From: Candidatus Latescibacterota bacterium
GTDB taxonomy: Bacteria; Latescibacterota; UBA2968; UBA8231
Direction of reading: 5' to 3'
Assembly: GCA_965223905.1 (NCBI GenBank)
Contig: CBDCXV010000001.1
Location: 1,568,001 to 1,632,000, forward strand
DNA: 64,000 bases
Below, piece by piece: positions 10,697-63,729 of the stretch. The translations under genes and the position numbers were made by a program. A model generated the notes under the pieces. It saw nothing but the letters and a program-made list of their open reading frames with translations, had not been told where the DNA came from and ran no database searches. Each line of letters starts with the position of its first letter. Positions within the stretch are counted from its first letter, which is position 1.

Positions 10697-11070
10697 GCGC
10701 ACGATTCCGGGCTCATTTCGCACGTTTCTGCGGAGGAAACCTCGATCTCAAACCTGCGGGTCATCTGCCACAAGCTGCCGGGTGCGCTCATCAAGGGCTC
10801 GGATCGCTCCCTGGATCGCATCGACCTCCCGCTCCTCGAAGTAGGGCTCACCGCATTGGCCGCAAACCCAGGCCGGGACGCCATCAAAGGCCAGGTGGTA
10901 GCCGTTCCGGTCAACACGGAACGGGGCCGTCAAGCGGTTCATTGCCGCGCGACAGTGGATGCACTCCATGAATCAATTGGTCCTCGTCCGCGTGCATTGA
11001 TCTTGCTCGCACCGGAACAGGGAACAAGCAAGCGGTAATTGTGCGCACGTTTCCGGGCTCATTTCGCACG
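10697..11070. repeat. 28-bp direct repeat (10697-10724 and 11043-11070) flanking the YgiT gene
   Basis: GCGCACG(A/T)TTCCGGGCTCATTTCGCACG, 27/28 identical. The 11043-11070 copy contains the stop of the HTH-coding frame (RAK*). Confidence 0.85.
10748..10969 (-). CDS. YgiT-type (MqsA-like) zinc finger protein
   Basis: MECIHC...VPAWVCGQCGEPYF, 73 aa. Confidence 0.88.
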   Translation of the reverse strand: MECIHCRAAMNRLTAPFRVDRNGYHLAFDGVPAWVCGQCGEPYFEEREVDAIQGAIRALDERTRQLVADDPQV

Positions 11071-12211
11071 ATTTCCGGGCACGTCGAAGGACGCCTCGGG
11101 GAGATAGTGGACGCCCCTGCCCTTTCCCTCCATACGCAGGAGACCGCTCTCGACGAGTCGCCGCAGCTCGCGGGCGGCGGTATAGCGGCTGACCTCGAAG
11201 ATCTTGCGGTAGTCGGCGTTGGTCAGGCTCGGGTGCCGGAGGAAGTGCTCGCGCAGGCGGGCAAGACGCGAGGTGGCGAATTGGGCGGTCCCGGGGATTG
11301 CATCCAGCGGCCCAGCCAACCGGCTCGTTGTAGAGACGGACGGAGAACACGCCGTCCTCCATCTCGACCTCCGGCTCCCGCAGGGAGCTCGCCGCCATCT
11401 CTTCGAAGATCCGCGCGACGCCCTCTCCTTCGCGCATGACCCCGGCATCGGCCAGCACGCGCACGATGAGCGGATTGCGAGTGGCGTGGGCAGGAAGGCG
11501 CTCCCGAAGCCTGGCGAGGGTCACCGGGGGGAGGAGGTCTCCAGGGCTCGACACCTCCATTCCGTCTTCATAGAACCAGGCTTCCACTTCGCGGCCCTGA
11601 TACTCGTAGTCCCGGTGAGCGAAGGCATTGACGATCGCCTCCTGCCACGCGAAGTCGGGATATTCGGGCACCTCTTCGAAATAGAGGCCGTTGAGCTTTT
11701 CGGAGCGGCGAACCTGCTGCCCGGCGAGCCGGTGGGCTTCGGCGATTGCGCTCGCGAGCGGCGGGTCGGCGCGGCCGGTCCGCGTCACGTTTCTTCGCCG
11801 GCCATGCTGGCGGCTCGTCCCGGCGATCCGAAACAGCCGCAGTCCGGCGCGCGGATGCCACCGGAGCGCGGGGGCCCTGGCGAACAGCAGGAGCGCGGCG
11901 TTCGTGACCCGCCACTCCTGCGCGGCCTGCTCGATCAGGCCGTAGTAGCTGAGTGCTTCCGTGACCGGGCGCGCTCCGAATGGGGTCCGGGCCAAGAATT
12001 CCCGGGCAAGCTCCAGGTCGAGGTCGTCCAGGGTCGCGTCCGCGCGGAAGCGTTGCTCGTAACCGACCCGGCGGTAGACTTGCTTGCGTTCGTTGATGAC
12101 TTCCTGCGGCTCTCGCGTCACGTGGTCGCCGCCTCTCGACAGCAGATGTCCGATTGCGTGCAGGTCGTCCTTGCCCTCCACCCACAGAATGGAGGTTTCC
12201 GGCTGAGGCAT
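11059..12211 (-). pseudogene. Chimera of a DUF3226/TOPRIM-like N-terminus and a HATPase_c_4-wHTH protein, frameshifted near 11320
   Basis: Begins ILWVEGKDDLHAI, then switches to EAIVNAFAHRDY/SSPG. The C-terminal wHTH (LTNADYRKIFEVSRYTAARELRRLV..GKGRGVHY) lies in another frame ending at 11059. Confidence 0.72.
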
Positions 12212-13305
12212 CAGCGAACCTCGATCTCCTGCTCCACGGCGATCCCGATCTGCTCGCCCCGTAGAGGCACGGCATGATCGAGGTCAGCATGCACCTTTTG
12301 CAGGGAGACCTTCTCCGCAAGGCCGGGTCGAGACCTGACCAGTGTTCCGAGTCCGCGAATGCAGTCATGGCTGTGCGTCGTTGCGAATATCTGCACGTTG
12401 CATCTGTCCGCCACCTCAACGAGGAGCCGCCATACATCCTCGATAACAGTCCAGTGCAGGCCGGCGTCGATCTCGTCGATCAGCAGGTATCCGTCCGTCG
12501 CCGAGACCAGGGCCAGCCGCAAAGCCAGCAGGCGGCGCAGGCCATCGCCGTAACTGCCGATCGGCATCCGGCGTCCTCCGCCTCGAAGCCCGACCAGGAT
12601 CCCCCCGGGGCCGGGTCTGCCAGTCAGAAAGTGAATTGAGTCGATTTCCGGCACGAGAAGCCGCATGTCTTTCGCGATTTCATCTTCTAGGCCGTCAGCA
12701 AGAACCTTGTCCCATGCGTCTCCCATACGCTCGGATGCAAAGGACTCCAGCCCGAGAAAGCGAACCGGGGACAAGGAGACGCCATTGCGCCAAGATGATC
12801 TCCGCCAGAAGTCATGCAGGATCGTCCCGTCTTCGGCCATCGGTAGAGCGATGGCCTCCTCCTCTGCGCCGGGCGCAATGCGCAGGCCGAAGGCGGGCTC
12901 GGTTTCTTCGTCCTCATCGAGTTCCCGCCGCCGCTCACGATTCCTTCCGGTCTCCCATAGATCGGCGTCTTCTCCCACTTCATCGAGGGACAGTATCGTC
13001 GTAGACAATTCGCGACCATCGTCGGAAGACAACTCGAAAGAGGCGCCGGGTTCGCAAGTGTGGCCGAAGAACAAGTGGGAGGCGTTCACTTCATGCCGTC
13101 GCCGATAGGAGATCCCTTCGTCATGGCGCTGGGCGACCTCGGAGAAAACAGAAAGGTGGCCGTTGGAAACGAGGAGCTCGACCGCTTCGAGAAGGGACGT
13201 CTTGCCGCAGTTGTTCTTGCCGACGAGAAGGTTCACGGTTGCCAGTTCGGCCAACTCGTAGGATTCGAAGGCGCGGAATCCACGCAGCGCGAGGGATTTC
13301 AGCAT
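12211..13305 (-). CDS. ABC-type AAA_15/AAA_21 ATPase
   Basis: GKNNCGKTS Walker A, YGDG signature, LLIDEID Walker B, TTHS H-loop. Confidence 0.9.
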   Translation of the reverse strand: MLKSLALRGFRAFESYELAELATVNLLVGKNNCGKTSLLEAVELLVSNGHLSVFSEVAQRHDEGISYRRRHEVNASHLFFGHTCEPGASFELSSDDGRELSTTILSLDEVGEDADLWETGRNRERRRELDEDEETEPAFGLRIAPGAEEEAIALPMAEDGTILHDFWRRSSWRNGVSLSPVRFLGLESFASERMGDAWDKVLADGLEDEIAKDMRLLVPEIDSIHFLTGRPGPGGILVGLRGGGRRMPIGSYGDGLRRLLALRLALVSATDGYLLIDEIDAGLHWTVIEDVWRLLVEVADRCNVQIFATTHSHDCIRGLGTLVRSRPGLAEKVSLQKVHADLDHAVPLRGEQIGIAVEQEIEVR

Positions 13306-13417
13306 CCTGGTGCTACCTCGTTTCGGATCACGCAGGATCCGGGAGAGTCGACCCTCATGTTGAGGACTCCCCAAGGGTACCGGGGGGGCCGCGCCTCGAT
13401 CAAGACGCTGAAGGTCC

Positions 13418-17077: not shown

Positions 17078-17151
17078 CTTGGGTCACGCGGTTCATCGCT
17101 TGCTCCACCTGTTGCGCGCTCGCTCATGGTACCCGCCGCCGTTTCCGGCCT

Positions 17152-18779: not shown

Positions 18780-19385
18780 TTACGAGGTCTTGTTTAGCAG
18801 CGTGTTGATGAACCGCTTGGCTTGCGGCGAGGCGCCTGTCACCTTGTCAGGATCCAGCTCAGCAAGGATTCCGAACGAGTGGCTGCCTTTGTCGTATTGA
18901 CCCTTCTTGCACTGCCGGGTTGCCGCCTTCAGGCCGGCTTCGATGTCACTCTTCGAAATGGCTTCTACCTCCAGTCGGCCCGGCAGCGATTTCATGTTGA
19001 AGTCGTCTCCAAAATACCCCGCCAGTGCCTCCTTGTCGGCGAGGAACCAGGCTTCCATGCACTGAACCATCAGATGGGCGTTTTCGTCCATGGCGCCGGC
19101 GGGCTTGTCCCAATTGTCGCGGTTCTCCAAGTGCAGCCAAGGTCCGGTTTTCTGGGCAACTGGGGCTTCGCTGTCGACAAGAAGGACGATAAAGTTGTTA
19201 TCCGTGGCTTTGGTCAACGCTGAACGGAACTTGTCGAAGGTTATTTCCCTGCTTCCACAGGCGATGACGTTCGGCATCCGGCCTTCCAAATGTGCCTTCT
19301 GGAAAAAAGATCTAAATCCCTGGCGGCACCTTGCCTTGAGCTCCCCTCTGTCTCCACCCCCTTCTACATAAATCCTGACGTTCAC
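18780..19385 (-). CDS. DUF4276-family TOPRIM-like protein
   Basis: IYVEGGG, LLVDSE and MVQCMEAWFLAD motifs; GTGA overlap with the upstream ATPase. Confidence 0.85.
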   Translation of the reverse strand: MNVRIYVEGGGDRGELKARCRQGFRSFFQKAHLEGRMPNVIACGSREITFDKFRSALTKATDNNFIVLLVDSEAPVAQKTGPWLHLENRDNWDKPAGAMDENAHLMVQCMEAWFLADKEALAGYFGDDFNMKSLPGRLEVEAISKSDIEAGLKAATRQCKKGQYDKGSHSFGILAELDPDKVTGASPQAKRFINTLLNKTS

Positions 19386-20554
19386 CACCGATTCCCTCCC
19401 AATTCCCCGGAGGTCCACAAGTCTCCGAGACGGTACTTATCCAGCCAGTGGGCAAGGTCGTCTTTGTCCAGACGCTTCATCGTCGTTTGTCCCTCATGTT
19501 TCTCGCACACGACAATGCTTTCCGGAGTTTCGGTAAGTGCGTCGACGAGAACATCAGAATGGGTGGTGACAATCAACTGGCAGCGCTCCGATGCTTCGCG
19601 CAGAAGGTCTGCGAGGCCTGGGAGGATGTCGGGATGGAGGCCCAGTTCGGGTTCCTCGATGCAAACCAGGGGCGGTGGGTTCGGGTGGCAAAGAATGACC
19701 AGCAGGCAGAGGTATCGAAGGGTACCATCGGACAAACGTGTCGCCGGGACCGCGACCTTCCCCTCTTGGAGAAAAACCTGGACCGTGCCGTACTCGATGT
19801 TGACGTGGAAATCGGATACACCCTCGTAAAGGTCCCGCAGGGCCTTGAGGAGGCGCTGTTTGACCTCGAACTCTCGCATCAGACGGTTCAGTACCAATCC
19901 CAGGTTCTGCAAGCTCTCAAGAAGAAAGTTGTTAGGTAGATCTGGCTTCTGGGGTAGGCGGACCGGAGTGATCCTGCCGAGAGACCACTCTCGATAGAGA
20001 TGTATCCGGTCAAATTCGTTGCCGATATAAGTTATCTCAGGGTAGCTGTTTGGATCTTTCAGCTTCGACAGAACGGACTTGCCATCGTGGCCCAGTTCCC
20101 ACTGCTTGGGTCCGTTTCCGTCGCCCGACGCCAGATCGTTGATCGTGGCCCCCATTTCGTCAGCTTCAAAGCAGACCCGTGGATCGTCCCCTTCAGGGCA
20201 GGTTCCTTCCTCCTCAAGCCGTTCACCGGCCATCCAGAAATTGTGGTTGCGTTGGGCGAATTCGAACCCGTAACGAAGGGGTAGTCGCCCTTGAGGACTA
20301 TCTACAGTGACCTCGACACGCGCAGACATGGCCTCGGGTTCCCCTCGCCAGATCCAGTCAGCGACACCCCCTCCCTCCAGTATCGGTTCCCGTATATCGC
20401 GAGGCGCGGCCTTCAACAGTCCCAATACCTCCATGAAATTCGACTTTCCCGAGCCGTTCGGACCGATCAATACATTTAGGGGCTTTAGTTCCAGCTCCAG
20501 TCCTTTCGGACCGAACGAAAGAATGTTCTTAAGCCTGATTCGGTGAATAAACAT
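19382..20554 (-). CDS. AAA_21/SMC-like ABC ATPase
   Basis: GPNGSGKSN, LSDGT, IEEPELGLHP and TTHS motifs. Confidence 0.92.
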   Translation of the reverse strand: MFIHRIRLKNILSFGPKGLELELKPLNVLIGPNGSGKSNFMEVLGLLKAAPRDIREPILEGGGVADWIWRGEPEAMSARVEVTVDSPQGRLPLRYGFEFAQRNHNFWMAGERLEEEGTCPEGDDPRVCFEADEMGATINDLASGDGNGPKQWELGHDGKSVLSKLKDPNSYPEITYIGNEFDRIHLYREWSLGRITPVRLPQKPDLPNNFLLESLQNLGLVLNRLMREFEVKQRLLKALRDLYEGVSDFHVNIEYGTVQVFLQEGKVAVPATRLSDGTLRYLCLLVILCHPNPPPLVCIEEPELGLHPDILPGLADLLREASERCQLIVTTHSDVLVDALTETPESIVVCEKHEGQTTMKRLDKDDLAHWLDKYRLGDLWTSGELGGNRW

Positions 20555-20566: not shown

Positions 20567-20905
20567 TCACCTGATTACGATTGGGCACTGCTTTACCTGC
20601 TGCCAACCGGGGAGCGATAACCTTCTCACCTGGGCTGCCGAATCAGCGCCACCAGCGCCGCCGTGAATCCCGCGATCTCTTCCGGGGTTCCTTCGTTCAC
20701 GACTTTTCGCAGCGCCTTCCCGATTTTCTCGTCATCGTATCTGTGCTCTTGTACGTATGCCACCGCAGTTTGCAGGTCCAGCGATTTTGACCCTGAAGGT
20801 GTCTCCGGCACCGGCTGCGGGGCGGTCTGATCCGGCATACGGTTGCTATCCGTTTGTTGGCGGTTCGCCTACCTGATCACGATGGGCCCCTGCTCTACCT
20901 GCCGC
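20567..20905 (-). repeat. Duplicated brxC 3' end (20869-20905 and 20567-20603)
   Basis: 29/37 nt identical; the copies encode RQVEQGPIVIR* and QQVKQCPIVIR*. Confidence 0.8.
20626..20838 (-). CDS. Small hypothetical protein (70 aa)
   Basis: ORF fills the gap between the two brxC 3'-end copies; no family recognised. Confidence 0.5.
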   Translation of the reverse strand: MPDQTAPQPVPETPSGSKSLDLQTAVAYVQEHRYDDEKIGKALRKVVNEGTPEEIAGFTAALVALIRQPR

Positions 20906-23900
20906 AGGAGATCCTCCTCCGTCTTCCTCACCCATGCGTCCACATCCTCCGCCGTCCGCAGGGTGGGGCTCTCCAGTTTCACATGACAGATCTCCGGTTC
21001 GACCAGCTTGTCCGCCTCGGCCCGGGCCTGCGCGAACAAGCTGGGGAGGGCGGCAATGCGCGTCCGCCAGGCGTCGAGGGAAATCCGTTCGAGGGATTCC
21101 ACCACTTCCTGTTCGCTGCCGGTCGCGCCCGTAGATGCCTTCGAGATGTGCATTCGCGCGAAAATCGCTTCCCGATTTTTCGGCTCGATCCGCCTCCAAC
21201 TCTCCGTCTCTTCCAGGCGTTTCTGCTCCTCGTCGTAGGTCTCGTCGTAACGATTCTGAGCCTCCGCCAGCGCACTCCGCAGCGCATTCGTCAGGTTCGC
21301 CGCGAGCCCGGGCACCGGATCCGAGGTGTCCAGCAGTCGCCGGTCCGCGACGATCGCTTCGATCTGGGGTTTTGCCTCCAGCGCGGCGTCCAGGCCATCA
21401 GCGTGGCGCGCGAGAGTCTGTAGCCGCTGAAAATCGGGCAGGCGCTTGGTCGCGAGACTGCCTGCCTTGGTCCAGTCCTTGAAGTTAGCCGCGAGCTCGT
21501 CATGCTGACCCAGGACGGCCAGGAGTTGCTCGTTGCCTGCAAGCGACTGAAGGTCCGACAGATGGCGGGTATCGGGGCGCTCGGGTAGCGGGGCATCCCC
21601 GCCCGCGTTCCGGGCAAACTCCTCTAACCTGTGCAGCAACCGGCCTGCGGCCTCGGACTCCTCGTTCGGCTTGCACTCGATCTCCGCTGTTTGAAAGAGG
21701 CTGCGCAGCTTCAGGCGCTGCCGGGTATCGATGGTAGCGCTCTCGATCCGGAAGTCGGCGTTCGGCACTTTCCCCTGATCGAGCCCTCGTGGCTTCAGCG
21801 ACACGCCGTTCGCGGAGGCCCGTAAGTGCCCGGTTTCAAAGAGACTGATGAGGGCCGCGTCGATGGCGTCGCGCGGCCAGCCGAAGGGCGGACCGGAGAA
21901 GTGCGAACGGACCTCCTTTCCCTTTTTCCCTGACCCCACCGACTCCATCACGGCCGAGCACACCGGGTGCTCCTCGGTCTTGCCGCTGTATTCCAGGGCT
22001 TCCAGCGGGTGCTCCGCGCCCCGGCGGGCGCGCTCGATTACGTTCGGCCACCGGTGGTCGTCGGCGTCGCTGAAGCGGTGGAAAAGCCGGTCGAGGGAAG
22101 CGTTTGCGGCTTCCGTTGTTTTCTCAAACAGGCTCAACTCCAATCGTTCATTGCCGCCGCCCTGGAAAACCTTCGCGCCGTTGATGATTTCGGCCACCAG
22201 CGTCTGCTGAGCGTTCTCCGCCTGGGCGTGGCGGGTCTCCATTCCCTGGCGCGCCTCGGTGCCTTCGTCCCCTGCAGGCACGCCCTTGAAATCAAGCGTC
22301 TCCCTTGCGGCACTGCTTTCGGCGATGCGGCGGGCGAGTTCATCGGCGCGGGTCCTGGGCACGAATACGTGGAGCACGGGGCTGTCGGGTCCGGCCGCGC
22401 GCGCGTCGGCGATCACACTGCTCTCATCGGCCCCCCAGCCATCCCGTATCCACACCGGGATGTCGAGGCCGCTTTCCGGCGGGGGCTCGGCACCGAAGTG
22501 CAGCGAGAGCTTTCGAGGCTCCTTGCACCTTCCGTGCACCAGCCGCACGGATCTTACGGCCTCCTGCACCGCGGCGCCGAGAAGCTGGCTGCGCCTACTG
22601 CTCATGCTCGCCAGATCGTTGGCGAGCCGGTTCTGCCGGTTGCGGAATTCGGCTTCCCATTCGCTGCTCTCCCGCGTCTGCAGGCTGTACTCGTCCTCGA
22701 GCTTCATCAGCGTTCCCGCTTCCACCAGCTCGTCGAGGAGCGCCGGAAGCCTCCCCCGCAGGGCGGCCCCTTCCTTGGCCAGGTCCTCAACCAGCAGATC
22801 CGCCAGCGCCCCGGGGGTTGCCCGTACGCCGATGTCCGCGCCGGCTTCGCGCGGGAGCTTGCGGATCAGGAACACCAGGGCGCAGAGCCGGGACTTGAGC
22901 TCGCCATCGGAGGTGCCGTCCCGCAGCTTGACGATGGTCTCGTGAAGCTCGCGCAGCAGCATGCCGGAGTTCAGCAGGTTGGTCTTCAGCTCCTCGAACA
23001 GGAAGTTCGCCGACACCACCGTACCGAGCGGTTTATCGGCCGTGCGGCGGATGGCTTCGTAGACGATGTGCAGCTGCGTGCGCAACTGGCCCGCCATCCC
23101 CGGGCGGTCGACGGCGCGCAGGGTATGTTCCCAGAAGCGCCGGCGAACGGGAAGCAACGGGTAATCCTCCACCAGGACCTGCTTGTCCTCGCCGCGGGGG
23201 CTGATGCGGCTGCCCACGAGGTGACGGTCGATCTCCCCGGCGCTCGCTTCCAGGGCAGCCTCGATGTCGTTGACACGGTCCGGACGTTTCGCCAGGACGA
23301 CCCGCCGGATCACTGTCTCCACGTCCTGGTCGGACAACTCCACGTTGATCCTGAAACGGCCCTGGAGACGCTGCAGCGCCGCGGTGCCCGACAGCGCCGT
23401 CTGTCCGGTGCCCACGAAGAGCAGGCGGTCGCCGAACCGCTTGCTGCAGGCTTCGACCAGATCCTGGACGATATAGGAGCGGTCGGTGCCCTCTCCGATG
23501 TACTGCTGCACCTCGTCGAGGACGATGACGCTGCAGGGCATCCCGCCGTCGGGAGCCAAGGTGTCCTGCAATGCGGCGATGAATCCGTCCGTGGTGATGT
23601 CATTTGGCTTTGGAAACTGGGCGCGCAACGCCGCCCTGGCTTCCCTTTCGCTGTTGGCGAAGCCGGGGTCGGCGGCGAGCAGTGCCTTGGCGATCACCGG
23701 GCTCACATACAGGTCGTTCAGCTCACGCCGAAACTCCCGGCCTTCCGCCTCGACCGTGTCATGCACCTGGTCGTAGATGTTGTTTTTCTTGAGCCAGAGG
23801 CAGAACTGCGCCTGGGGGTAGCTCTCGGGGAGCCCCGCGGATTTGAACACGATCCCGAGCAACGCGAGCCGGACGCTATCCCCGGCGCCGTCGAGCGTTC

Positions 23901-24309
23901 CGGCGGCGGCGTGCAGTCCATTCCCCCGCCGGCCGAGGGTGGAGATCTCGGTCAACAGTTCCTGCACGTCGGCCGGCAACCGGGCGAGGCCCCGGGCGTT
24001 GGCGCCGTCCTCGGGGAAGGTGTGGTCCGACCACAGGAAGCGCAGCATCTTCGCCAGGTGCGACTTGCCGCTGCCGAAGAAGCCGCTGATCCAGGCAGCC
24101 GGCTGCTCCGGCTGACCTTGGTGGCTGATGTAGGATTCCAGGATGCGAACGAGCCCGCTGCGGTACTGTCCTTCGCAGACGAAATGCTCCAGCTCGAAGC
24201 GGAGCGTGCGGCGCTCCTCGTCGGTGGCCGCATCGGTCACGGCCGCGACGCCGTTGTTCAGGAGCGTGATCTTGTCGGGATCTTTCTGGTAGACCGCCCG
24301 GTTCTTCAT
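20869..24309 (-). CDS. brxC: BREX P-loop ATPase BrxC
   Basis: WISGFFGSGKSH Walker A, VLDEVQQYIG Walker B; 1146 aa. Confidence 0.95.
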   Translation of the reverse strand: MKNRAVYQKDPDKITLLNNGVAAVTDAATDEERRTLRFELEHFVCEGQYRSGLVRILESYISHQGQPEQPAAWISGFFGSGKSHLAKMLRFLWSDHTFPEDGANARGLARLPADVQELLTEISTLGRRGNGLHAAAGTLDGAGDSVRLALLGIVFKSAGLPESYPQAQFCLWLKKNNIYDQVHDTVEAEGREFRRELNDLYVSPVIAKALLAADPGFANSEREARAALRAQFPKPNDITTDGFIAALQDTLAPDGGMPCSVIVLDEVQQYIGEGTDRSYIVQDLVEACSKRFGDRLLFVGTGQTALSGTAALQRLQGRFRINVELSDQDVETVIRRVVLAKRPDRVNDIEAALEASAGEIDRHLVGSRISPRGEDKQVLVEDYPLLPVRRRFWEHTLRAVDRPGMAGQLRTQLHIVYEAIRRTADKPLGTVVSANFLFEELKTNLLNSGMLLRELHETIVKLRDGTSDGELKSRLCALVFLIRKLPREAGADIGVRATPGALADLLVEDLAKEGAALRGRLPALLDELVEAGTLMKLEDEYSLQTRESSEWEAEFRNRQNRLANDLASMSSRRSQLLGAAVQEAVRSVRLVHGRCKEPRKLSLHFGAEPPPESGLDIPVWIRDGWGADESSVIADARAAGPDSPVLHVFVPRTRADELARRIAESSAARETLDFKGVPAGDEGTEARQGMETRHAQAENAQQTLVAEIINGAKVFQGGGNERLELSLFEKTTEAANASLDRLFHRFSDADDHRWPNVIERARRGAEHPLEALEYSGKTEEHPVCSAVMESVGSGKKGKEVRSHFSGPPFGWPRDAIDAALISLFETGHLRASANGVSLKPRGLDQGKVPNADFRIESATIDTRQRLKLRSLFQTAEIECKPNEESEAAGRLLHRLEEFARNAGGDAPLPERPDTRHLSDLQSLAGNEQLLAVLGQHDELAANFKDWTKAGSLATKRLPDFQRLQTLARHADGLDAALEAKPQIEAIVADRRLLDTSDPVPGLAANLTNALRSALAEAQNRYDETYDEEQKRLEETESWRRIEPKNREAIFARMHISKASTGATGSEQEVVESLERISLDAWRTRIAALPSLFAQARAEADKLVEPEICHVKLESPTLRTAEDVDAWVRKTEEDLLRQVEQGPIVIR

Positions 24310-28499: not shown

Positions 28500-28808
28500 G
28501 TGAACCCAAGGTACCAGATCGTCATCTACTGGAGCGACAACGACCGCAGCTTCGTCGCCGAAGTGCCGGAGCTCGACGGCCTCGAGGTCCTCGGGGAGAG
28601 CTACGAGGAGGCGCTCGCAAAGGCCAGGACCGCGATGGCGGAATGGATCGACAGGGCCCGCGCCGACGGAGAGGAAATCCCCGAGCCGCTGGGCCGCGTC
28701 GAGGTCGCCCCGAAGACCGGCCGCGCCGGCCGGCGGCAGGAGCGCATCGACAAGCGCCGCCGCCGAAGGGAGAAGGGGCGCCGGGAGCGGCGCGACGCCG
28801 CGGAGTAG
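28500..28808 (+). CDS. hicB: HicB-family antitoxin with Arg-rich tail, no hicA
   Basis: YQIVIYWSD.D..FVAEVPEL.G...GESYEEAL....GEEIPEP. Confidence 0.85.
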   Translation: MNPRYQIVIYWSDNDRSFVAEVPELDGLEVLGESYEEALAKARTAMAEWIDRARADGEEIPEPLGRVEVAPKTGRAGRRQERIDKRRRRREKGRRERRDAAE

Positions 28809-28833
28809 TGCCTGTCCGCACACATTCTGCGCG

Positions 28834-28975
28834 AATCCGGCTCGCCGATACAGTCCGTCCCGCGGCGATGCTTTCGCTCGCGGTCACAGTACGGCTCGGG
28901 CGCCTTGCCGGCCGGAGGCATCGGCAAAAGGACGCAGTTTGTCCTCGCCCTCGTCCGTACGCTTGCCGGCGCGCA
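28834..28975 (+). repeat. Palindromic MITE/REP-like element, copy 1
   Basis: Shares the blocks AATCCGGCTCGCCG, GCG(A/T)TGC(T/C)TTCGCTCGC and CGCCCTCGT(C/T)CGTACGCTT, in order, with the reverse complement of 35095-35185. Confidence 0.6.
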
Positions 28976-29161
28976 GCAGGCTTGGACCCGGTTGAAGGCT
29001 CCCCGGCGCCGGGAGCGGCGCGAACGCAACGGGCAAGGAATGCTGCCTCCCCGCGCAGGCACCAGGTTGAATGCTGCACTGCCCCGGGGCCTCGCGGCTT
29101 CGCCGCAGTGTCGCTGCCGAGGGCCCATGAATTCCCAAGTCAATAACCGAAGGAGACCGCC

Positions 29162-35069: not shown

Positions 35070-35239
35070 CAATCCGGCTCTTCATTGTGGCTGGGCGCGT
35101 AAGTAAGCGTACGAACGAGGGCGCCGAGGCGCCCTGCTTACCGGGGGTGTACGGCGAGCGAAGGCAACGCGGCGAGCCGGGATTGAGGGAAAAATCGCAC
35201 AGATGAAGGGTTTGGATTGAACCGCGATTTTTCCCTCAA
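35070..35239 (-). repeat. Palindromic MITE/REP-like element copy 2, with an adjacent 16-bp perfect inverted repeat
   Basis: Ends are CAATCCGGCT and AGCCGGGATTG; TTGAGGGAAAAATCGC (35183-35198) pairs with GCGATTTTTCCCTCAA (35224-35239). Confidence 0.65.
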
Positions 35240-35345
35240 GATGCAGCGGCAACCGGATTCACGCGGATTGCGCGCCCAGGCACCAGGTTGACGGGTTCCC
35301 CCTGGAGTTGCGCGAACCAGCAGCGACTACCGGCCACCCGGCCCC

Positions 35346-41255: not shown

Positions 41256-41439
41256 GCTGGAGATGTAGGGGTAGGGAGTGAATGGCCAAGGTGAAGGCTT
41301 TGAACTTTCCCGGTTTGCAATGCCAGGGGATCTTTGTCAGGAGTAACTCCCCGCAGCCATTACCCGAACCATTTGTTCGGACGCTATCAGTAATGTGCCA
41401 TGGCATGAGAATTCGACCTGATACCGAGATGCTTTTTCC

Positions 41440-41772
41440 ATGAAATTGCCCGATGGCGAAAATGCGCTGGTACCAATCCAAAAAATTGAACAATATCTGC
41501 TTTCCGAGGTGCATGCCATAGGTCGAGCAAAGGCGCGATTCTTCCAAAGTGTCGGATATCAACCACGAGATGCTTCTGTTCTCGCCGCTGATTTAGCATC
41601 CATTGCCCGCAATGAGCAGGTCTCCGACGTTGCGGAGACACGTCATGGCACCAAGTATGTTGTGGATGGCAACCTGAAAACCCCATCGGGTTCGAGTGTT
41701 CGCATACGGACGGTCTGGATTGTTGAGGCAAGTCTGGATAGGCCGCGTTTGGTGACAGCGTATCCAGGCTGA
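41440..41772 (+). CDS. DUF6883-like putative toxin
   Basis: MKLP..ENA.V..KIEQYLLS..H..GRAKARFF...TVWI...PRLVTAYP. Confidence 0.75.
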   Translation: MKLPDGENALVPIQKIEQYLLSEVHAIGRAKARFFQSVGYQPRDASVLAADLASIARNEQVSDVAETRHGTKYVVDGNLKTPSGSSVRIRTVWIVEASLDRPRLVTAYPG

Positions 41773-41792
41773 TCAAGGAGGATTGAGTTGAG

Positions 41793-42026
41793 ATGACTGA
41801 ATTGGATCTGGTAGTTCTCGAGGAGTCCATTGTAGAGCACGGTCTGGTGGCGGGCGATGTGGGGACGGTCGTCCATAGATATGCAGATGAGAAGGCGTCG
41901 GAGGTAGAGTTCGTGGATACCCAAGGTACCACCATTGCTGTTCTGACTCTGGAAGATTCGGTAGTGCGTACTCCCATGGCGGGTGAAATTCTACACGTTA
42001 GAGATGTATCGCCCGCGGGCTCCTGA
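41793..42026 (+). CDS. DUF4926 protein (putative antitoxin/immunity)
   Basis: ELDLVVL....HGLVAGDVGTVVH....EVEF....G.TIAVLTL. Confidence 0.85.
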   Translation: MTELDLVVLEESIVEHGLVAGDVGTVVHRYADEKASEVEFVDTQGTTIAVLTLEDSVVRTPMAGEILHVRDVSPAGS

Positions 42027-42034
42027 CCTTTCTA

Positions 42035-42478
42035 GCAGATCAGCTCATGGTACTTCCCCGGACGTGCCGGAGGACCGGGCGCCGATGGCCGATGATGGTC
42101 GTCCCCAAGAAGTTCGGGGACGACGCCGGCAAGGGGGTGCTGCTGGCGGTGCCGGGGGGCACGCAGATGATCTTCAATACCTACCTGTGGCACTCGGCCA
42201 CCCCATTCAGAGCGAGCGAGGGGCAGCGCTACTCGGTAACCCGGATCTACGGCCGCGCCGACCATTACTGGGAAGGGGTCCGCAGCTACACCAACCTGGC
42301 GTTGGTGGAGCCGTTCCGGGAGTTCATCGGCTCGATCAGCGCCGAGCAGCGGGAGCTGTTCCGGTTTCCCCCGGCGGGGGACTCGTACTACAACGGGGTG
42401 ACGCTGGCTGGGTTGGAGGAGCATTATCCTGGGTGGAAGGCGGGTGGAGAGTACACGGAGTGGGGCAACTTAGATTAA
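42035..42478 (+). pseudogene. Diverged duplicate of the 3' half of the PhyH gene at 40446-41255
   Basis: Aligns with 40826-41246 with small indels at its start; no 5' half present. Confidence 0.92.
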
Positions 42479-42588: not shown

Positions 42589-43605
42589 ATGAAACGATAC
42601 TGGACCACTGATGAATTTGTACTAAGGCAGAAACGTCGAATACGAAAATCAGAACGCCTAAAGCAGAAAAGGAGAAAACAGTATAGGAGACCGCGCAAGG
42701 AATCACCGAAACCCCGAGCGACACGCTCGGGTCTGGAAGAACAAACCCTGGTTGCACCAGAAGTACTTAATCTTTTTGTAGAACCTAATGAAACTCTCAA
42801 CTACTGTAACACATTGCGATATCACCTTAACAAACGGGAAATTAAAGTCGATCTTGATCTTCGCAATATCCGTAGTTTTTCAAGTGATGCGCTTCTTTTA
42901 ATGCGGGCAATCATTTTGAACTCAAGAAGCCCCACTCGATCAGTCGGTGGAAATCTGCCGGTGGATCCGAAGGTGGCTTCCGAATTCAAAGCATCTGGTT
43001 TTTTCCAGGGGTTTGATCAGCCACCTGCTGATCTTCCTCCTGCCAAGGGGTTGATGTTGGACAAATCAAATTTTCGGGTGTATGCGAAAACTGCTTCGGA
43101 GTTGGTGGATTTCGCTGAAAATCACGTTGCAATCACTAGAGAATGCACTAACGCATGTTTTCAGACTCTTGTTGAGGTCATGACGAATACACACAACCAC
43201 GCGGGTGACAAGAAGCCCGGCATGCGTGAAGAAAAATGGTTTGTCAGTGTTTACTGCATAGAAGGATTGGCTTACTTCAATTTTGTTGATCTTGGAATTG
43301 GCATTTTAAAGAGCGCCCAAGCTATCAATTTCCTGAAAAGATTCGGTTCATCGCTTTTTGCGTTTGGCCGAATCAGCCTACTAAAAGAGGCCTTCAATGG
43401 TACAATCGGGTCTGTTACCGGTAATCCAGGCAGGGGTCTCGGGCTTCCAAGAATGAAATGGGATGCGGAAAACGATAAGCTGTCTGATCTCCAGGTATTG
43501 ACTTCTAATGTAATCGGATCTGTTGCTGATTTAGATTTCAAATCAATTCACCCTTCATTACATGGCACATTGTTTCGTTGGTGCGCCGGACCCAAAGGAG
43601 TCTGA
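42589..43605 (+). CDS. GHKL (histidine-kinase-like) ATPase with basic N-terminus and probable STAS-like domain
   Basis: N box EVMTNTHNHA, G1 DLGIGI, G2 GRGLGL; low GC. Confidence 0.8.
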   Translation: MKRYWTTDEFVLRQKRRIRKSERLKQKRRKQYRRPRKESPKPRATRSGLEEQTLVAPEVLNLFVEPNETLNYCNTLRYHLNKREIKVDLDLRNIRSFSSDALLLMRAIILNSRSPTRSVGGNLPVDPKVASEFKASGFFQGFDQPPADLPPAKGLMLDKSNFRVYAKTASELVDFAENHVAITRECTNACFQTLVEVMTNTHNHAGDKKPGMREEKWFVSVYCIEGLAYFNFVDLGIGILKSAQAINFLKRFGSSLFAFGRISLLKEAFNGTIGSVTGNPGRGLGLPRMKWDAENDKLSDLQVLTSNVIGSVADLDFKSIHPSLHGTLFRWCAGPKGV

Positions 43606-43608
43606 GGA

Positions 43609-43962
43609 ATGATAAAAATCAATATAGCTAAAGATTTCACTCAATTTCCTGGTCCTCGATACAAAAATCAGGGACCGGGGTCCGGACAGGAGTTCCGGGA
43701 AAACCACTTAGAACCTGCGTTCCTGAAAGCCAGAGAGACTAGTGGGCAAGTCACAATCGAACTCGATGGTCTAAAATACAGTTACCCCACGTCCTTTCTT
43801 GAAGAGGCATTTGGGGGCCTTGCCAGGCAGTACGGAATAGATGAAGTTGAGCGAATCTTACGCTTCGTGTCGGCTAATGAACCATTACTCGACACCGAAT
43901 GTCGCCACTACATAAAGCATGCACACGATACGCCCGGGACAAGTTTTAGGGGGGAGAAATGA
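43609..43962 (+). CDS. STAS-like DUF4325 protein
   Basis: DFTQFPGPRY..GPGSGQEFRE...IELDG..YPTSFLEEAFGGL. Confidence 0.85.
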   Translation: MIKINIAKDFTQFPGPRYKNQGPGSGQEFRENHLEPAFLKARETSGQVTIELDGLKYSYPTSFLEEAFGGLARQYGIDEVERILRFVSANEPLLDTECRHYIKHAHDTPGTSFRGEK

Positions 43963-44507
43963 AAATACCAAAAAAAATAATCCTTCCCTTAGTGATCGGC
44001 GTTCTCATTGGAACCTTTGTAATGTCGTGGGTGGATACACCTCACATTTCAATTTGCTTGATAAATGCGGGGGTAACCTTGGTGGTCGGCTGGTGGATCC
44101 ACAGCGCTGTTCGACGCAGGGGGGAATCAGAGCGCGTTTCGACCGATTACTTATCAAATCTTAGCCGCCGGATTGACGAGTTGATAATGACGTGTCAAGG
44201 CGTTACAAACAGGGGGCCCGACGGTACTATTGAATTCACACGGCTCTCGAATGAGATATATTGGTTATGCATTGTTGCGGAGAAAATGAAACCCAGTCTG
44301 ACTTCATCGGTAGAAAAACTCCGTACACATTTCTTTATTTTCAAAACGCACTTGACCGGGGATGCTAATCCAGAAATTGGATTGGCATTGATGGAAGCAA
44401 ACGAAATGCGAATGACAGTTTTGAAAATCCATTGGGATCTGTGTCGATGTGTCTTAGATCGAAGGACTGATACGGGCCTTTTTCCCGGTTTCGAGGATGA
44501 TGTTTGA
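43959..44507 (+). CDS. Hypothetical protein with two N-terminal TM helices
   Basis: Two hydrophobic segments followed by a helical domain; ATGA overlap with the upstream gene. Confidence 0.7.
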   Translation: MKIPKKIILPLVIGVLIGTFVMSWVDTPHISICLINAGVTLVVGWWIHSAVRRRGESERVSTDYLSNLSRRIDELIMTCQGVTNRGPDGTIEFTRLSNEIYWLCIVAEKMKPSLTSSVEKLRTHFFIFKTHLTGDANPEIGLALMEANEMRMTVLKIHWDLCRCVLDRRTDTGLFPGFEDDV

Positions 44508-46997: not shown

Positions 46998-47095
46998 TCA
47001 TTTTGAACCCCTACCTCCAGCGAAAAACCAAATGCGCCCTCGGGATTGACCCAAGGACTATGGGACACCACAAGAGCATGGATGTCCAAGTCTGG

Positions 47096-52010: not shown

Positions 52011-52112
52011 GGGGTTCTCCAGTCGCAAGGTCGGCCGCATGCAGGACCGGGGTTGCCGAAGCCCCGGCAGGAACGCACCGGGGGCCCCGCGCGTTCGGAT
52101 CCTGTGGATGTA

Positions 52113-56424: not shown

Positions 56425-56442
56425 CCCGCATCGAGGCCGGCG

Positions 56443-59420: not shown

Positions 59421-59432
59421 GAGGGGGGAGCC

Positions 59433-60329
59433 ATGTCCGTCGACATCTACGAACGCAGCCCGGTCGGCAGCTTCACCAGGGAGCACTTGATCGAGTACAC
59501 CTCCGACTGGGAGGGGGAGCGCTTTGCCGACGGCCGCCCGCGCGTGCCGGACGAAATCATCGAGCGCATGAGGAACGTCACCCTGACCCAGGCCTGGGGC
59601 ACCTGCAACGGCGCCGGCTACGAGTTCCAGTTCGAAGGCGGCTTCATCAACACCCACCCGGGGCAGGTGCTGTGCGGGCGCGCCGTCACGGCGACCTTCA
59701 TGCCGCGGCGCCCCGACTGCCGCCGCGCCCTCGACGAGCAGGGTGAGAAGGGGGGGCACGAGGGGGACCACATCCACTGGACCATCAACATGCTGGTGAC
59801 AGGGGACGTGTACGTCGCCGACGTCTTCGGCAAGATCGACAAGGGGGCGATCATCGGCGACAACCTCGCCGCCTCCATCAAGGCGAAATCGGGGAACGGC
59901 GTCCTCCACGACAACTCGGTGCGCGACATCGAGGGGATCCGCGGCCTCGAGGACTTCCCCTGTTTCGTGCGCGGCTGGCACCCGTCGATCGCGGCGCCGA
60001 CGATCATGCTGACCGGCATGAACTGCCCGACCCGCATCGGCGGCTGCACGGTGATGCCCGGGGACATCGTCCTCGGCAAGGGGGACGCGGTGGTCTTCAT
60101 TCCCCCGCACCTGGCCGAGCAGACCGTCACCACCGCCGAGATCGTGCACCTGCGCGACATCTTCGGCAAGACCCGCCTCGGCGAGGGGAAGTACCTGCCC
60201 GGGGAGATCGACGGGCGCTGGGGGGACCACATCGAGAAGGACTTCTCCGAGTGGCTGGAGGACCACATCGACGAGCTGCCGGTCCCCAAGAGCGCGATCC
60301 AGGAGTACCTGAAGACAAGGACCTGGTGA
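59433..60329 (+). CDS. RraA family (HMG aldolase-like) protein
   Basis: GRAVTA, IIGDNLA, VRD and TVMPGDIVLG motifs. Confidence 0.88.
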   Translation: MSVDIYERSPVGSFTREHLIEYTSDWEGERFADGRPRVPDEIIERMRNVTLTQAWGTCNGAGYEFQFEGGFINTHPGQVLCGRAVTATFMPRRPDCRRALDEQGEKGGHEGDHIHWTINMLVTGDVYVADVFGKIDKGAIIGDNLAASIKAKSGNGVLHDNSVRDIEGIRGLEDFPCFVRGWHPSIAAPTIMLTGMNCPTRIGGCTVMPGDIVLGKGDAVVFIPPHLAEQTVTTAEIVHLRDIFGKTRLGEGKYLPGEIDGRWGDHIEKDFSEWLEDHIDELPVPKSAIQEYLKTRTW

Positions 60330-60398
60330 AGGTACCCAAGGCTGGGTTCCTGTCTAGGCCTTGACGAGGTTGACCACTAAAAAAGAGAAGACAGAGAA

Positions 60399-61529
60399 GT
60401 GATGGAAATTCAAGGTAAGAACCTTTGGCAGCATGCGGCCGGGGATCCAGCTCACAACCACGTGGATCTGTGCCTTGAATGGGGGGTCATTTTGAATGGC
60501 CCAGGTGGGAAGGGTGAATGGAATGACGGCGCTTGTTATGGTCGGGGCAGAAAACAAACCGATCTCCGCCGATTCTGCGAAGAAACGGAGATGAAGACCG
60601 GCGATATCGTCGTTCTTCGTATAGGCACAACGGCAATCTACGGAGTCGGTGTCGTCGGCGAATACAAATGGTGCGACGAATTCAATGATGTTGACGGGTG
60701 GGACCTTGGACACACGCGCCGCGTGCATTGGTTATGGCGATACGATGTCGATGGCATGATCAATGGCATGCCCTCTCCCCAATCTTTCGACACATACACA
60801 ATGAAGCTTGGAGACACGACGCAGCGTCTCGATGCTCCCGCGGTAATATCCTGGCTGGAGTCACTGGATATTCCAGATGATCAGGCTTCGCATTTACTCC
60901 CTGACCTGCCAAAGGCCGCCGAGGGAGAAGGGTGTAATAAAATCAGTAGCGATAAGATAGCAGAGTTCTTGTTCAAAGAAGGCATTCCAAGCGATTCAAT
61001 TCGAAACCTGTTGGATCCGAACGGCGAATTCATTCGAATCGCCAACTGGTACAGGGGACTAAATCCTTCAGAGAACGAAACAGTGAGCCATCTCGTCGTA
61101 CCACTGGTTCGGATCCTCGGTTGGACCCCTCAAAGGATAGCCCTAGAATGGAGCAGAATCGATATCGCGCTCTTCTCAAGAATGCCTCGGAACAACGACC
61201 ATCTCTCCGTGGTCGTCGAAGCCAAGAAGGTTCACAACGCGTGTTTGTCGTGGGCAGTATCCCAGGCTCAAAACTACGCATCGCCACTTCCGAATTGCCG
61301 CCGTCTGGTCGTAACGGACGGCCTTCGTTACGGGATATTCACTAGAACGAGTAAGGACGAGGAATTTTCGCTGTATGCCTATCTGAACCTTACCAGACTT
61401 CGCAACCAGTATCCGGTCTACGGATGCAACGGCGCCAAAGAAGCAATCCTGGCCATGACTCCCGAATGGGAACCTGATTGGCAAACTGATTCGCAACAGG
61501 CTGCCCTGTCGCGGGAAAACGCGGAGTAG
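60399..61529 (+). CDS. Putative restriction-like nuclease: EVE/PUA-like N-terminus plus HsdR_N-type PD-(D/E)XK domain
   Basis: MKTGDIVVL...GVGVV..Y...HTRRVHW; ENET...LGW...RIDIAL...VEAK...QAQNYA...VTDG. Confidence 0.7.
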   Translation: MMEIQGKNLWQHAAGDPAHNHVDLCLEWGVILNGPGGKGEWNDGACYGRGRKQTDLRRFCEETEMKTGDIVVLRIGTTAIYGVGVVGEYKWCDEFNDVDGWDLGHTRRVHWLWRYDVDGMINGMPSPQSFDTYTMKLGDTTQRLDAPAVISWLESLDIPDDQASHLLPDLPKAAEGEGCNKISSDKIAEFLFKEGIPSDSIRNLLDPNGEFIRIANWYRGLNPSENETVSHLVVPLVRILGWTPQRIALEWSRIDIALFSRMPRNNDHLSVVVEAKKVHNACLSWAVSQAQNYASPLPNCRRLVVTDGLRYGIFTRTSKDEEFSLYAYLNLTRLRNQYPVYGCNGAKEAILAMTPEWEPDWQTDSQQAALSRENAE

Positions 61530-61578
61530 GTGCTGGACGGTCGTTTCCCTTACGAACGGGAATAGAAGGAGACATTTC

Positions 61579-61863
61579 ATGGACGAGGACTATCTAAAGG
61601 GGGTCATCGAGGGATTGGGCGGTGCCAAAGCCTTGATGGATGAGATGGACCAGTATCACGAAATCGTCGCTCGCATGAGAAAGGAGCGCCCCAATCTGTT
61701 GGAGCGTCACCCCGACAAATGGGTGGCGATGGGACAGGAGGGGGTCTTGGCCGTAGGAGACTCCATGGATGAGGTGCTCAGCGAGGTTGAAGGCCGTGGG
61801 TTGCATGGAGCGGACGTAGTGATCGAGTTCATGGACACGGACCCTCCCCTGCTGATCCTGTGA
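61579..61863 (+). CDS. DUF5678-like small protein
   Basis: LLERHPDKWVAM...VLAVGDSMDEVL....PPLLIL. Confidence 0.7.
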   Translation: MDEDYLKGVIEGLGGAKALMDEMDQYHEIVARMRKERPNLLERHPDKWVAMGQEGVLAVGDSMDEVLSEVEGRGLHGADVVIEFMDTDPPLLIL

Positions 61864-61957
61864 TCATCGGCGAGTTTGACGATCAGGGGCGACCATACGT
61901 CGAGGGCCGTGTTTTTTATCATCCCGCGCCTGGATTTCAATGAGATCGTACCGTTCC
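61860..61957 (+). pseudogene. Remnant N-terminus of a retropepsin-like aspartyl protease
   Basis: GTGA overlap, VIIGEFDDQGRPYVEGRV / IIPRLDFNEIVPF, truncated before the expected DTG motif. Confidence 0.55.
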
Positions 61958-62025
61958 AACGAGGGACTGCCGTCGCTGCTCGGGCGTGATGTCATCAACC
62001 ACTGGCATATATACAAATCCAGGCT

Positions 62026-62532
62026 ATGTCCATAGAACCAACCGGATCCGAAAAACCTTCGGTCTATATCGAGTCATCCATAGTCGGCTATTTAGCATCG
62101 CGGCCCAGCCGGGATGTAGTCGGAGCGGCTCGCCAAGCGATTTCTCACGATTGGTGGAGCAACCACCGGCATCGATTTGATCTTCGCATTTCTGCACTGG
62201 TCGAAGAAGAAATCTGCCGTGGGGACGACGAGGCGGCTGAACGGCGTCTGGGTTGGGTAGCCGAGATTCCGAGCTTGAGGATCTCGGACCAAGCTACTGA
62301 ACTGGCAGGACAGTTGCTGGCTGAAGGGGTTATTCCCGCAGGGAGTGAAGACGACGCGTTGCACATCGCAATTGCCGCCGCTCAGGGGGCGGATTTTCTC
62401 CTGACCTGGAATTTCCGTCATATCAACAACGCCGAAACGAAATCGGCTATTTTAAGAGTTGTAGAATCGTGTGGATTTGTATGTCCACACATCTGTTCGC
62501 CCGAAGGATTGGGGGGAGTATCAGATGATTGA
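62026..62532 (+). CDS. vapC: PIN-domain (VapC-like) toxin
   Basis: VYIESSIVGYL, EEEI..GD, DALHIAIA and FLLTWNFRHI motifs. Confidence 0.88.
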   Translation: MSIEPTGSEKPSVYIESSIVGYLASRPSRDVVGAARQAISHDWWSNHRHRFDLRISALVEEEICRGDDEAAERRLGWVAEIPSLRISDQATELAGQLLAEGVIPAGSEDDALHIAIAAAQGADFLLTWNFRHINNAETKSAILRVVESCGFVCPHICSPEGLGGVSDD

Positions 62533-62698
62533 AGATCCTGTTGTTGAAGAAATTCGCCGGCACCGTAAAGTCCATGCTGCCGAACATGGAAATGACCTTG
62601 GGCGCATTGTTCAAGCACTCCGCAAGCGCGAACGGGAATCTGATCGTCCGCTGCTGAATCCAGGGCCAAAGAAGCAACCAAGCCCAACCGAGGGCTGA
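62525..62698 (+). CDS. Small putative antitoxin downstream of the PIN toxin
   Basis: MIEDPVVEEIRRHR..HA...DL; overlaps the PIN stop. Confidence 0.7.
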   Translation: MIEDPVVEEIRRHRKVHAAEHGNDLGRIVQALRKRERESDRPLLNPGPKKQPSPTEG

Positions 62699-62954
62699 TA
62701 TTCGACCGGCCCCTGCTCTACCTGATGGGGGACGGTTCCACCTGCTCGAGCTGGCTCATCGCGGCCGGAAGAGCGCCCCGCCGCCGCCGTTGCGAAAATC
62801 CGGGCCGCGTTCGCCGTCGAAAAGGCGGCGCAGCCTGCGATCCGAAGAGCTTCTCGCGCGGCGGACAACATCCGGACCGATACGAGCCGCCACCTGGCGG
62901 CGCGCTTCGCGACTCGACAGCCACTCCTCCCATTTCCAGGAAACCTTGACCGGC

Positions 62955-63548
62955 TCAGTCGAGCTCACGTTCCACCTCGGCCTTCAGGCCGGTCATCTGT
63001 TCGGCGACGTCGAAAGAGGGCAAGGCCGCCAACCGGTCTACCTCGTCCCAATCGACCGGCGTCCGCCCCGCGAGACAGACCGCGAGCAGCTTCCTCGCCG
63101 CATCGCGCGCCTCGCTGTCGCTCGCTGGATAGAACGCCGAAAGCACCCGCTCCACGAGAACCTGCTCCACGGGAATGATCGATATCCTCCCACAGGGTGT
63201 GTCGATCTCACGACACGCCGTGCGCGCTTCGTTTTCCAGCAAACCGAGTAGATCGACATACAGGTCGCCGACCAGCCAGCTTCGGGGGCCGCCCGTCGCC
63301 TTCAACTTGCCCATGAGATCCTGCGCCTGGCGCAGCGGTACCGGTTGCGGATTCAGACGGCAGAAATCGATATCGCCGGACATGTATGCCCCTTCCGTGT
63401 AGAACTCGACGGCGGAGCCGCCGACGACGACGAGTTCCCAGCCGGCTTCCCGGAAAACACCGGTTACGAGCCCGGCGAGCTTCAGGGCTTTCTCGAGCAG
63501 GTCTTCGGTAGCCTGAATATCCTGCAGGGCTGAATCTATCGAGTCCAT
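62955..63548 (-). CDS. Putative nucleotidyltransferase-fold protein
   Basis: VVVGGSAVEFYT.G.Y.SGDIDF pol-beta-like motif. Confidence 0.65.
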   Translation of the reverse strand: MDSIDSALQDIQATEDLLEKALKLAGLVTGVFREAGWELVVVGGSAVEFYTEGAYMSGDIDFCRLNPQPVPLRQAQDLMGKLKATGGPRSWLVGDLYVDLLGLLENEARTACREIDTPCGRISIIPVEQVLVERVLSAFYPASDSEARDAARKLLAVCLAGRTPVDWDEVDRLAALPSFDVAEQMTGLKAEVERELD

Positions 63549-63729
63549 ACTGACAAGGGTACCGGCGGCAGCGGACGCCGGCAACGCGCTTGGAGTACCA
63601 AGGGCTGCCGGTCCCGAAGCGCGCGATCGAGGAGTACCTGAAGACGCGGACCTGATGGAAGAGTGCGGATGAAGATGGAGCGGCTGGCCCATTCCATCGG
63701 CCAGACAGGCTTTGGCGAGAAGGCGGCTC

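Follow-up and report, generated by a model that had tools for sequence, protein, structure and literature searches.

Displaced gene ends around defence and toxin-antitoxin cargo in a Latescibacterota genome: probable scars of homology-anchored gene gain

In a 64,000-nucleotide (nt) stretch of a Candidatus Latescibacterota genome (G000:C1:1568001-1632000, hereafter the window), several host genes are followed by cargo and then by a diverged second copy of their own 3' end. A first-pass annotation, made from the sequence alone, had listed five such sites, at a PhyH-family gene, an RraA-like gene, brxC, a winged helix-turn-helix (wHTH) gene and hicB (Table 1), and had read them as gains of defence and toxin-antitoxin (TA) genes without an integrase. 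All five repeat pairs lie where it had placed them and with the counts it had given: recomputed, they agree at 29/37 (brxC), 27/28 (wHTH), 46/51 (RraA) and 19/19 (hicB) positions, and at PhyH over 428 columns at 89.7%. Self-BLAST of the window places the PhyH (E=1e-163) and RraA (E=1e-12) pairs far above chance, and these two are unambiguously displaced gene tails. G000 is a 7.9-Mb metagenome-assembled genome (MAG) with 64% GC; the main comparators, G001 and G002, belong to the same genus, G002 being a single contig that was assembled separately.

Table 1. Host genes, gene-end copies and cargo at the five repeat sites (positions in the window; aa, amino acids; ORF, open reading frame)
Site	Feature	Position	Strand	Basis
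PhyH	PhyH-family host gene	40446..41255	+	Pfam PF05721; G001/G002 alignment
PhyH	Copy 1, current tail, last ~430 nt of gene	40826-41255	+	Alignment with G001/G002
PhyH	Cargo A: DUF6883 (41440-41772) and DUF4926 (41793-42026)	41256..42034	+	
PhyH	Displaced old tail with two indels; end and flank match G002 gene end	42035..42477	+	Sequence comparison
PhyH	Older cargo B: 338-aa ORF, STAS-like DUF4325, 182-aa ORF	42589..44507	+	
RraA	RraA-like host gene	59433..60329	+	Pfam PF03737
RraA	Copy 1, last 54 nt of gene	60275-60328	+	Repeat alignment
RraA	Cargo A: HSDR_N-like ORF (weak), DUF5678, PIN-like ORF (weak), nucleotidyltransferase-like ORF (weak)	60330..63603	.	
RraA	Displaced tail	63604..63657	+	
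RraA	End of cargo B; gene continues to 65553 outside the window	63730..64000	-	
brxC	brxC; last 37 nt are copy 1	20869..24309	-	PADLOC, BREX locus
brxC	Cargo: 70-aa ORF, C-terminal remnant of a 518-aa gene	20626..20838	-	G002 comparison
brxC	Displaced tail, QVKQCPIVIR with stop, 13 nt before HEC-01A-like start	20567..20603	-	
brxC	HEC-01A/HEC-01B-like ATPase and DUF4276 pair, behind the displaced tail	18780..20554	-	PADLOC
wHTH	RecG-C/wHTH gene end (stop 11059-11061) plus ~16 nt, copy 1	11043..11073	-	
wHTH	Cargo: YgiT-type zinc-finger gene	10748..10969	-	TIGR03831
wHTH	Second copy of gene end	10697..10727	-	
hicB	hicB tail: 19-nt direct repeat around ~228-nt insert	28777..29023	+	

At the PhyH site the relatives form an allele series: G001 is empty and leads straight into the next gene, G002 has the gene followed by cargo B, and the window has the gene, cargo A, the displaced tail and cargo B in that order. 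The cargo B homologue of G002 (69%) lies directly 3' of PhyH and is absent from this site in G001, and cargo A, whose two genes we take to be a TA-like pair, was found in neither G001 nor G002. The end of the working gene differs from that of G002, and it is the displaced tail that shares the G002 terminal letters. Sequencing runs bear on this site only, and three of them, X12, X13 and X14, represent at most two samples. Contigs from these three agree with much of cargo A, at 0-7 differences, as far as position 42034 and then diverge, and the 16 nt next to cargo A there had no match in G000 or the comparison loci; cargo B at PhyH is without cover, and one X13 contig connects 41243 to 44552, the empty form. 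A donor-type allele, with PhyH and cargo A and no second tail, is probably present in these runs. Contigs of X10, which may be the source sample, match the window exactly across the tail 1-cargo A and tail 2-cargo B junctions, and cover only 26 nt past the joint between cargo A and tail 2.

The RraA site gives a second series, in which G006 is empty, G002 carries cargo A and G001 cargo B, each with one gene end and no second tail, while the window carries both cargos with the displaced tail between them. Cargo A is largely common to the window and G002, and the homologue of cargo B lies closely 3' of rraA in G001. Empty and single-cargo alleles in relatives, and cargo that varies between them, had both been predicted by the first-pass annotation, and both are found, the variation extending to the wHTH site, where G002 has other cargo. 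Cargo A of rraA also contains a 72-nt piece (62701-62771, plus strand) that is 86% like an internal part of a conserved downstream gene (66085-66156), a stray fragment that G002 has as well. A GTACC/CCAAGG motif suspected by eye at the RraA junctions is not enriched at junctions and was discarded.

The three shorter pairs were set against a positional control of 4802 probes, in which 27 did as well as or better than brxC, 24 than wHTH and 31 than hicB (0.5-0.6% each). At brxC, the second copy scores 21.9 bits on a leave-one-out profile of BrxC tails, the maximum among 56 controls being 9.9, and because of this score we read it, on sequence grounds, as a true displaced tail. The 518-aa cargo gene is intact behind brxC in G002, with the same cargo end and no tail after it. 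The notion of brxC as a general hotspot of tail displacement was rejected (1/29 loci), and a suspected second BrxC-like remnant in G002 had no score on the tail profile. The surrounding locus (3315-25726, minus strand) holds a complete bacteriophage exclusion (BREX) set of brxA, brxB, brxC, pglX, pglZ and brxL, with inserts between the core genes that comprise the HEC-01A/B-like pair, AAA ATPases, three RecG-C-domain genes and a KTSC gene. In G002 the backbone of the BREX locus is the same and the inserts differ, and BREX was not found in G001 with the queries used.

The wHTH repeat is probably a displaced gene tail as well. The gene ends at 11059, not 10973, and the repeat spans its last codons, the stop and ~16 nt beyond; relative to G002 the RecG-C/wHTH gene (10973-12211, minus strand) carries a 1-nt deletion that shifts the frame; the gene is either truly a pseudogene or wrongly assembled here. 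In G002 this site has one copy of the gene end and lacks the YgiT-type gene. At hicB, the exact repeat ends before the stop codon, the insert is largely a dispersed non-coding repeat (at least 25 matches) and G002 has one copy and no insert. Thus, PhyH, RraA and brxC, and probably wHTH, stand as host tails displaced by cargo, and hicB was rejected as an example, since its repeat flanks a dispersed non-coding element instead of gene cargo. Two dispersed non-coding repeat families occur in the window, at 28796-29004 and ~35140-35290, and recur many times in G000 or G001/G002.

To place these sites in their genomic setting, genes were called with a self-trained hexamer model, which finds host genes and misses many AT-rich cargo genes. 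A first probe scan (3837/4354 genes) was swamped by paralogues and was replaced by a low-copy pipeline that collects direct repeats within 20 kb pairing part of a gene with non-genic DNA (891 low-copy out of 3237 local repeats), direction and strand (inverted repeats) serving as controls; the resulting site list was not curated by hand. In G000, a 3' end was repeated downstream of its gene 61 times (60/4837 genes) and upstream 8 times (p=3e-11), and a mirror form was also detected, in which the 5' end was repeated upstream 28 times and downstream 12 times (p=0.017). The inverted-repeat controls gave 3, 2, 1 and 1. In the strict subset (identity >=78%, insert >=400 nt, repeat <=500 nt), the 3' counts were 41 downstream and 5 upstream and the 5' counts 17 upstream and 4 downstream, and internal gene fragments had no direction bias (25 vs 20). 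The duplication of 3' ends that had been proposed is therefore strongly directional across the genome and is not specific to 3' ends, and the displaced-end feature is real and general in G000. The repeats have a median length of 95 nt, range from 20 to 832 nt and involve ~60 unrelated target genes.

The outer copy is continuous with a relative's flank at six sites (PhyH, C10:231658, C11:1755779, C2:511759 and two sites of G002), and at least three duplications are common to G000 and G002. Stacks of two displaced ends stand behind one G002 gene and before one G000 gene, the latter presumably hsdR-like. A denser stack lies at C10:2130853-2141416 of G000, where a 290-aa gene has four downstream copies of its end and a neighbouring gene a displaced end of 717 nt. 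At C10:232612-237539 (L145), a 4.9-kb insert of three genes, a PD-(D/E)XK nuclease and two ORFs of unknown function, is flanked by a perfect 49-bp repeat and the G002 site is empty; the insert looks young and is a candidate defence system. Across 0.8 Mb of the E. coli K-12 genome, 583 genes gave icd/e14 as the sole 3' match (Fisher p=0.012 vs G000), and 0.4 Mb of G035, from another family (296 genes), gave one 3' end downstream, three 5' ends upstream and one downstream.

The inserts have a median length of 1.9 kb at 3' sites and 3.0 kb at 5' sites, and with a median GC of 0.587 and 0.597, respectively, compared with 0.643, the cargo is AT-richer. Twenty cargos, chosen by size and clean look (19 non-paralogue 3' or 5' cases and one ABC paralogue), were scanned with Pfam. 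TA, defence or nuclease families were present in 9/20, namely HigB, HicB, MqsA with a restriction endonuclease, PIN with MazE, AbiEii/AbiEi, PIN, AAA_21, PD-(D/E)XK and GmrSD, against 2/20 length-matched random segments of G002 (p=0.03), which bears out the predicted enrichment. Among these 20 there was no transposase and no methyltransferase, with single nuclease domains in three; insertion sequence (IS) copies do occur in some long cargos. Roughly half of the cargos scanned lack any TA or defence annotation, which makes them candidates for new defence genes.

Whether the two copies represent one allele or two was addressed through their differences. The ratio of non-synonymous to synonymous differences (pN/pS) between copies was 0.28-0.37, compared with 0.18 for 433 orthologue pairs and with a median of 0.52-0.99 under two spectra for an identical-duplication null; after calibration against decay nulls, the pooled ratio was dropped as a decisive test. 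Non-synonymous differences have no AT bias (C>T 0.023, A>G 0.027), and the 272 synonymous differences exceed twice the decay prediction (189). When changes private to the displaced copy were polarised by G002 (13 pairs, 575 codons), 46 were synonymous and 50 non-synonymous, an excess over the ~26% synonymous expected under decay with p=3e-6 (p=0.002 at 33%), values that are optimistic given that sites within a pair are non-independent and two pairs share one gene. The direction was the same in the comparisons with G001 (22:22) and G002 (26:23), which partly use the same sites. Because of this excess of synonymous changes, the displaced copies were working alleles: the two copies come from two working alleles and the displaced ones are not decayed duplicates.

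Taking the allele series, the direction of the repeats and the two working alleles together, we consider it probable that the displaced ends are scars of gene gain, in which DNA of a relative, carrying a gene end and its cargo, recombined homologously at one end and was joined non-homologously at the other. Such homology-anchored capture is likely to proceed without a dedicated recombinase and to yield a product that combines both alleles of a locus, cut at an arbitrary point within the gene end. The earlier proposal that an incoming allele brings a related 3' end and new cargo and pushes the old tail downstream is thus essentially right. Displaced gene ends also provide a simple searchable marker for recent acquisitions of defence and TA genes and for their order.

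The following course of events can be envisaged. A donor fragment with a gene end and neighbouring cargo would be taken up from a relative and trimmed, end-joining would turn it into a circle, and the circle would integrate by a single RecA crossover within the gene end; alternatively, the same product would arise if a linear molecule invaded and the displaced strand were kept. G000, G001 and G002 all encode ComEC, Ku and LigD. Since the alleles diverge past the stop, homology would run out there (31/41 strict 3' repeats have their end no more than 20 nt from it), and the 5' class would follow by the same logic. Events that contain the stop or, in the mirror form, the start would keep the gene whole and survive selection, the cargos would stack as nothing resident is lost, and TA or defence cargo would be likely to persist as addictive or useful. 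Microhomology at the joint is ~1 nt at PhyH, the donor side being known at only three sites (PhyH, RraA and brxC), and in a few genes divergence is higher past the repeat, the pattern expected from linear invasion. It may tentatively be proposed, although we rather doubt it, that circles made from taken-up DNA by Ku and LigD, followed by one RecA crossover, serve these bacteria as a principal and general means of acquiring defence and TA genes. If it were true, any gene start or end could be a docking site, and stacks of displaced ends would record the order of acquisition, as a distributed integron without an integrase. The ligD and ku genes are adjacent and lie ~13 kb from comEC in G000 (C9:92548-95412, C9:108373-109185), with the same spacing in G001 and G002.

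A number of observations weigh against gene gain by one-sided homology. We infer the recombination step from its product, the only part of the process that is seen, and the signature expected of reciprocal hybrids (donor letters towards the outside of copy 1 and the inside of copy 2) is a trend only (p=0.09). Of the strict repeats, 13/41 are at most 60 nt long, short for a single crossover between alleles that are 80-90% identical. The 3' bias of G002 is weak (10 vs 6, p=0.45; 5' ends, 4 vs 1), in a count that covers 2.02 of its 7.05 Mb, a portion in which most G000 sites have no orthologue. Some entries of the genome-wide list are false positives, for example a tandem ABC-permease paralogue (L138), and one clean case, with 49 bases identical in both copies and in G002, is uninformative on the existence of two alleles. 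Within the window, the short pairs are weak when taken alone in the self-BLAST (brxC E=0.023, hicB E=0.081, wHTH E=1e-5), a displaced tail was found at none of 28 other brxC loci, and the linkage of cargo A to PhyH in X12-X14 depends on low-depth pieces. Finally, a strongly AT-biased decay null gives a pN/pS of 0.33-0.40, which reaches the observed values.

Two working alleles and the order cargo A-tail-cargo B would also result if the alleles had first stood in tandem, as a merodiploid or through unequal crossing-over, and most of the second gene copy had later been deleted. Merodiploids made by transformation are on record (PMC3784515), and deletions do occur in this genome, the brxC cargo being truncated. 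However, this course needs deletion end-points that fall repeatedly within ~100 nt of the stop, as the median repeat length indicates, and duplicated upstream neighbours were not seen at any of the window sites, so that we regard it as unlikely.

Alternatively, cargo might enter at a break with exact copying of the resident end, the outer copy of this target-site duplication decaying afterwards, which is how insertion with long target duplication was first understood. The perfect 49-bp repeat around the insert at C10:232612, with its empty G002 counterpart, is as expected from such an event, the pooled pN/pS fits AT-biased decay, and the repeats of Furuta et al. likewise span start or stop codons (PMC2853133). 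It is nevertheless quite unlikely, as the non-synonymous differences are not AT-biased, synonymous differences surpass twice the decay prediction, changes in the displaced copy are rich in synonymous ones, and cargo alleles without a second tail exist at RraA and brxC (in G002) and probably at PhyH.

A further possibility is that the repeats are attachment (att) site pairs, attL and attR, of decayed integrase islands, or flank cassettes moved in trans by the recombinases or IS91 transposases of the genome. G000 has 19 matches to the tyrosine recombinase family PF00589 and a single match to the serine recombinase (resolvase) family PF00239 in the whole genome; a tyrosine recombinase lies within 5 kb of 4/89 sites, multi-copy DNA adjoins 13/45 junctions, one such fragment being presumably IS91-type, and the only 3' match in E. 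coli was icd/e14. However, PF00589 was found inside none of the 61 cargos at 3' sites or the 28 at 5' sites and nowhere in the window, within which there is also no tRNA, and no 4-6-mer was enriched at the junctions of 45 sites, in line with the previous claim that the window has no integrase and the repeats no shared consensus. At these 45 sites no paired cargo ends scored >=10, the mean own-end inverted score was 5.8 vs 5.9 for the null, and 32/45 flanks are single-copy; the diversity of targets and repeat lengths and the lack of an integrase at young, near-identical pairs point the same way. This reading is largely refuted as a general cause and very improbable, and it may hold at a few sites. 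Assembly chimeras of co-occurring strains, suggested by the 5.1% contamination of the MAG and by the several strains at PhyH in the runs, can be all but dismissed in view of the duplications common to the separately assembled G002, the indels of the displaced PhyH tail and the X10 contigs, mismatch-free across the two junctions and short only at the cargo A-tail 2 joint, if perhaps from the source sample.

Other features of the window include two AAA_22/AAA_35 ATPase genes (17202-18744, minus strand, and 57012-58536, plus strand), which are 70% identical over 1.56 kb, inverted and 40 kb apart, and a region (45597-52040, minus strand) with a split ISL3 transposase beside repeat-rich genes (LDL-receptor class B repeats, CARDB repeats), where synteny with G001 and G002 is lost.

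Among known systems, a restored gene with a displaced 3' fragment beyond the insert recalls e14 in icd. Islands of the e14 type carry an integrase gene and recombine at a fixed att core; at the present sites neither was found. The displaced-end loci are not an integron either, given that attC-like complementary ends or cores were not found at 45 sites and PF00589 is absent from the window; of the earlier description as integron-like, the stacking outcome holds and the cassette-end structure does not. Insertion with long target duplication, reportedly described by Nobusato 2000, shares with the present sites inserts below 20 kb, long and variable direct repeats, the absence of mobility genes, a relative in which the site is empty and defence cargo; it differs in concerning restriction-modification (RM) genes and RM-linked breakage, whereas here the cargo is mostly non-RM, dozens of sites occur in one genome and two alleles are involved. 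Furuta, Abe and Kobayashi 2010 (PMC2853133) report long repeats around RM inserts, often reaching across a start or stop codon, and the supplementary figures of that paper may include non-RM examples. Of its criteria, a repeat longer than 30 bp, an insert below 20 kb and an empty relative site are found at PhyH, RraA, C10:232612 and C11:1755762, and hicB has a repeat of 19 bp; R and M genes together were not found in an insert, there being no methyltransferase among the scanned cargos.

In an E. coli study (PMC3240628), 56/60 clones obtained with linear DNA homologous at one end, at ~4e-9 per recipient, contained partial gene duplications, which measured 109-950 bp in the 14 clones sequenced. 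Circularisation followed by a single crossover would, on our analysis, be the best-documented route to duplication rather than deletion, with a gene end duplicated around foreign DNA and no dedicated recombinase, in a RecA-dependent manner there; the E. coli case, however, is a laboratory plasmid assay with identical homology rather than a demonstrated natural genome-wide route. Classical homology-facilitated illegitimate recombination (HFIR) deletes ~1 kb of recipient DNA (PMC3240628), unlike the present sites, where the resident tail and older cargo are kept. The joints expected of this classical process have 3-10 bp of microhomology. HFIR has been proposed for the integron-like displacement arrays of type VI secretion system (T6SS) and Rhs loci (Kirchberger 2017, PMC5361080), which similarly combine one homologous anchor with one illegitimate joint and displace old modules downstream without an integrase; those arrays are restricted to polymorphic toxin loci, whereas the anchors here are ordinary genes. 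Hotspots of horizontal gene transfer free of mobile genetic elements, 27% of hotspots being without a mobility gene (Oliveira 2017, PMC5635113), resemble our sites in the turnover of cargo beside core genes through housekeeping recombination and differ in that double homologous recombination amounts to replacement and leaves no duplicated gene end.

In the open-access literature we found no prior description of genome-wide displaced 3' and 5' ends at ordinary genes. A double crossover replaces cargo only, and the scars reveal an additive route at ~1% of genes in one genome. The process is of an already described kind and not a new machine, and what is unusual about it is its scale across ordinary genes and its 5' mirror form.

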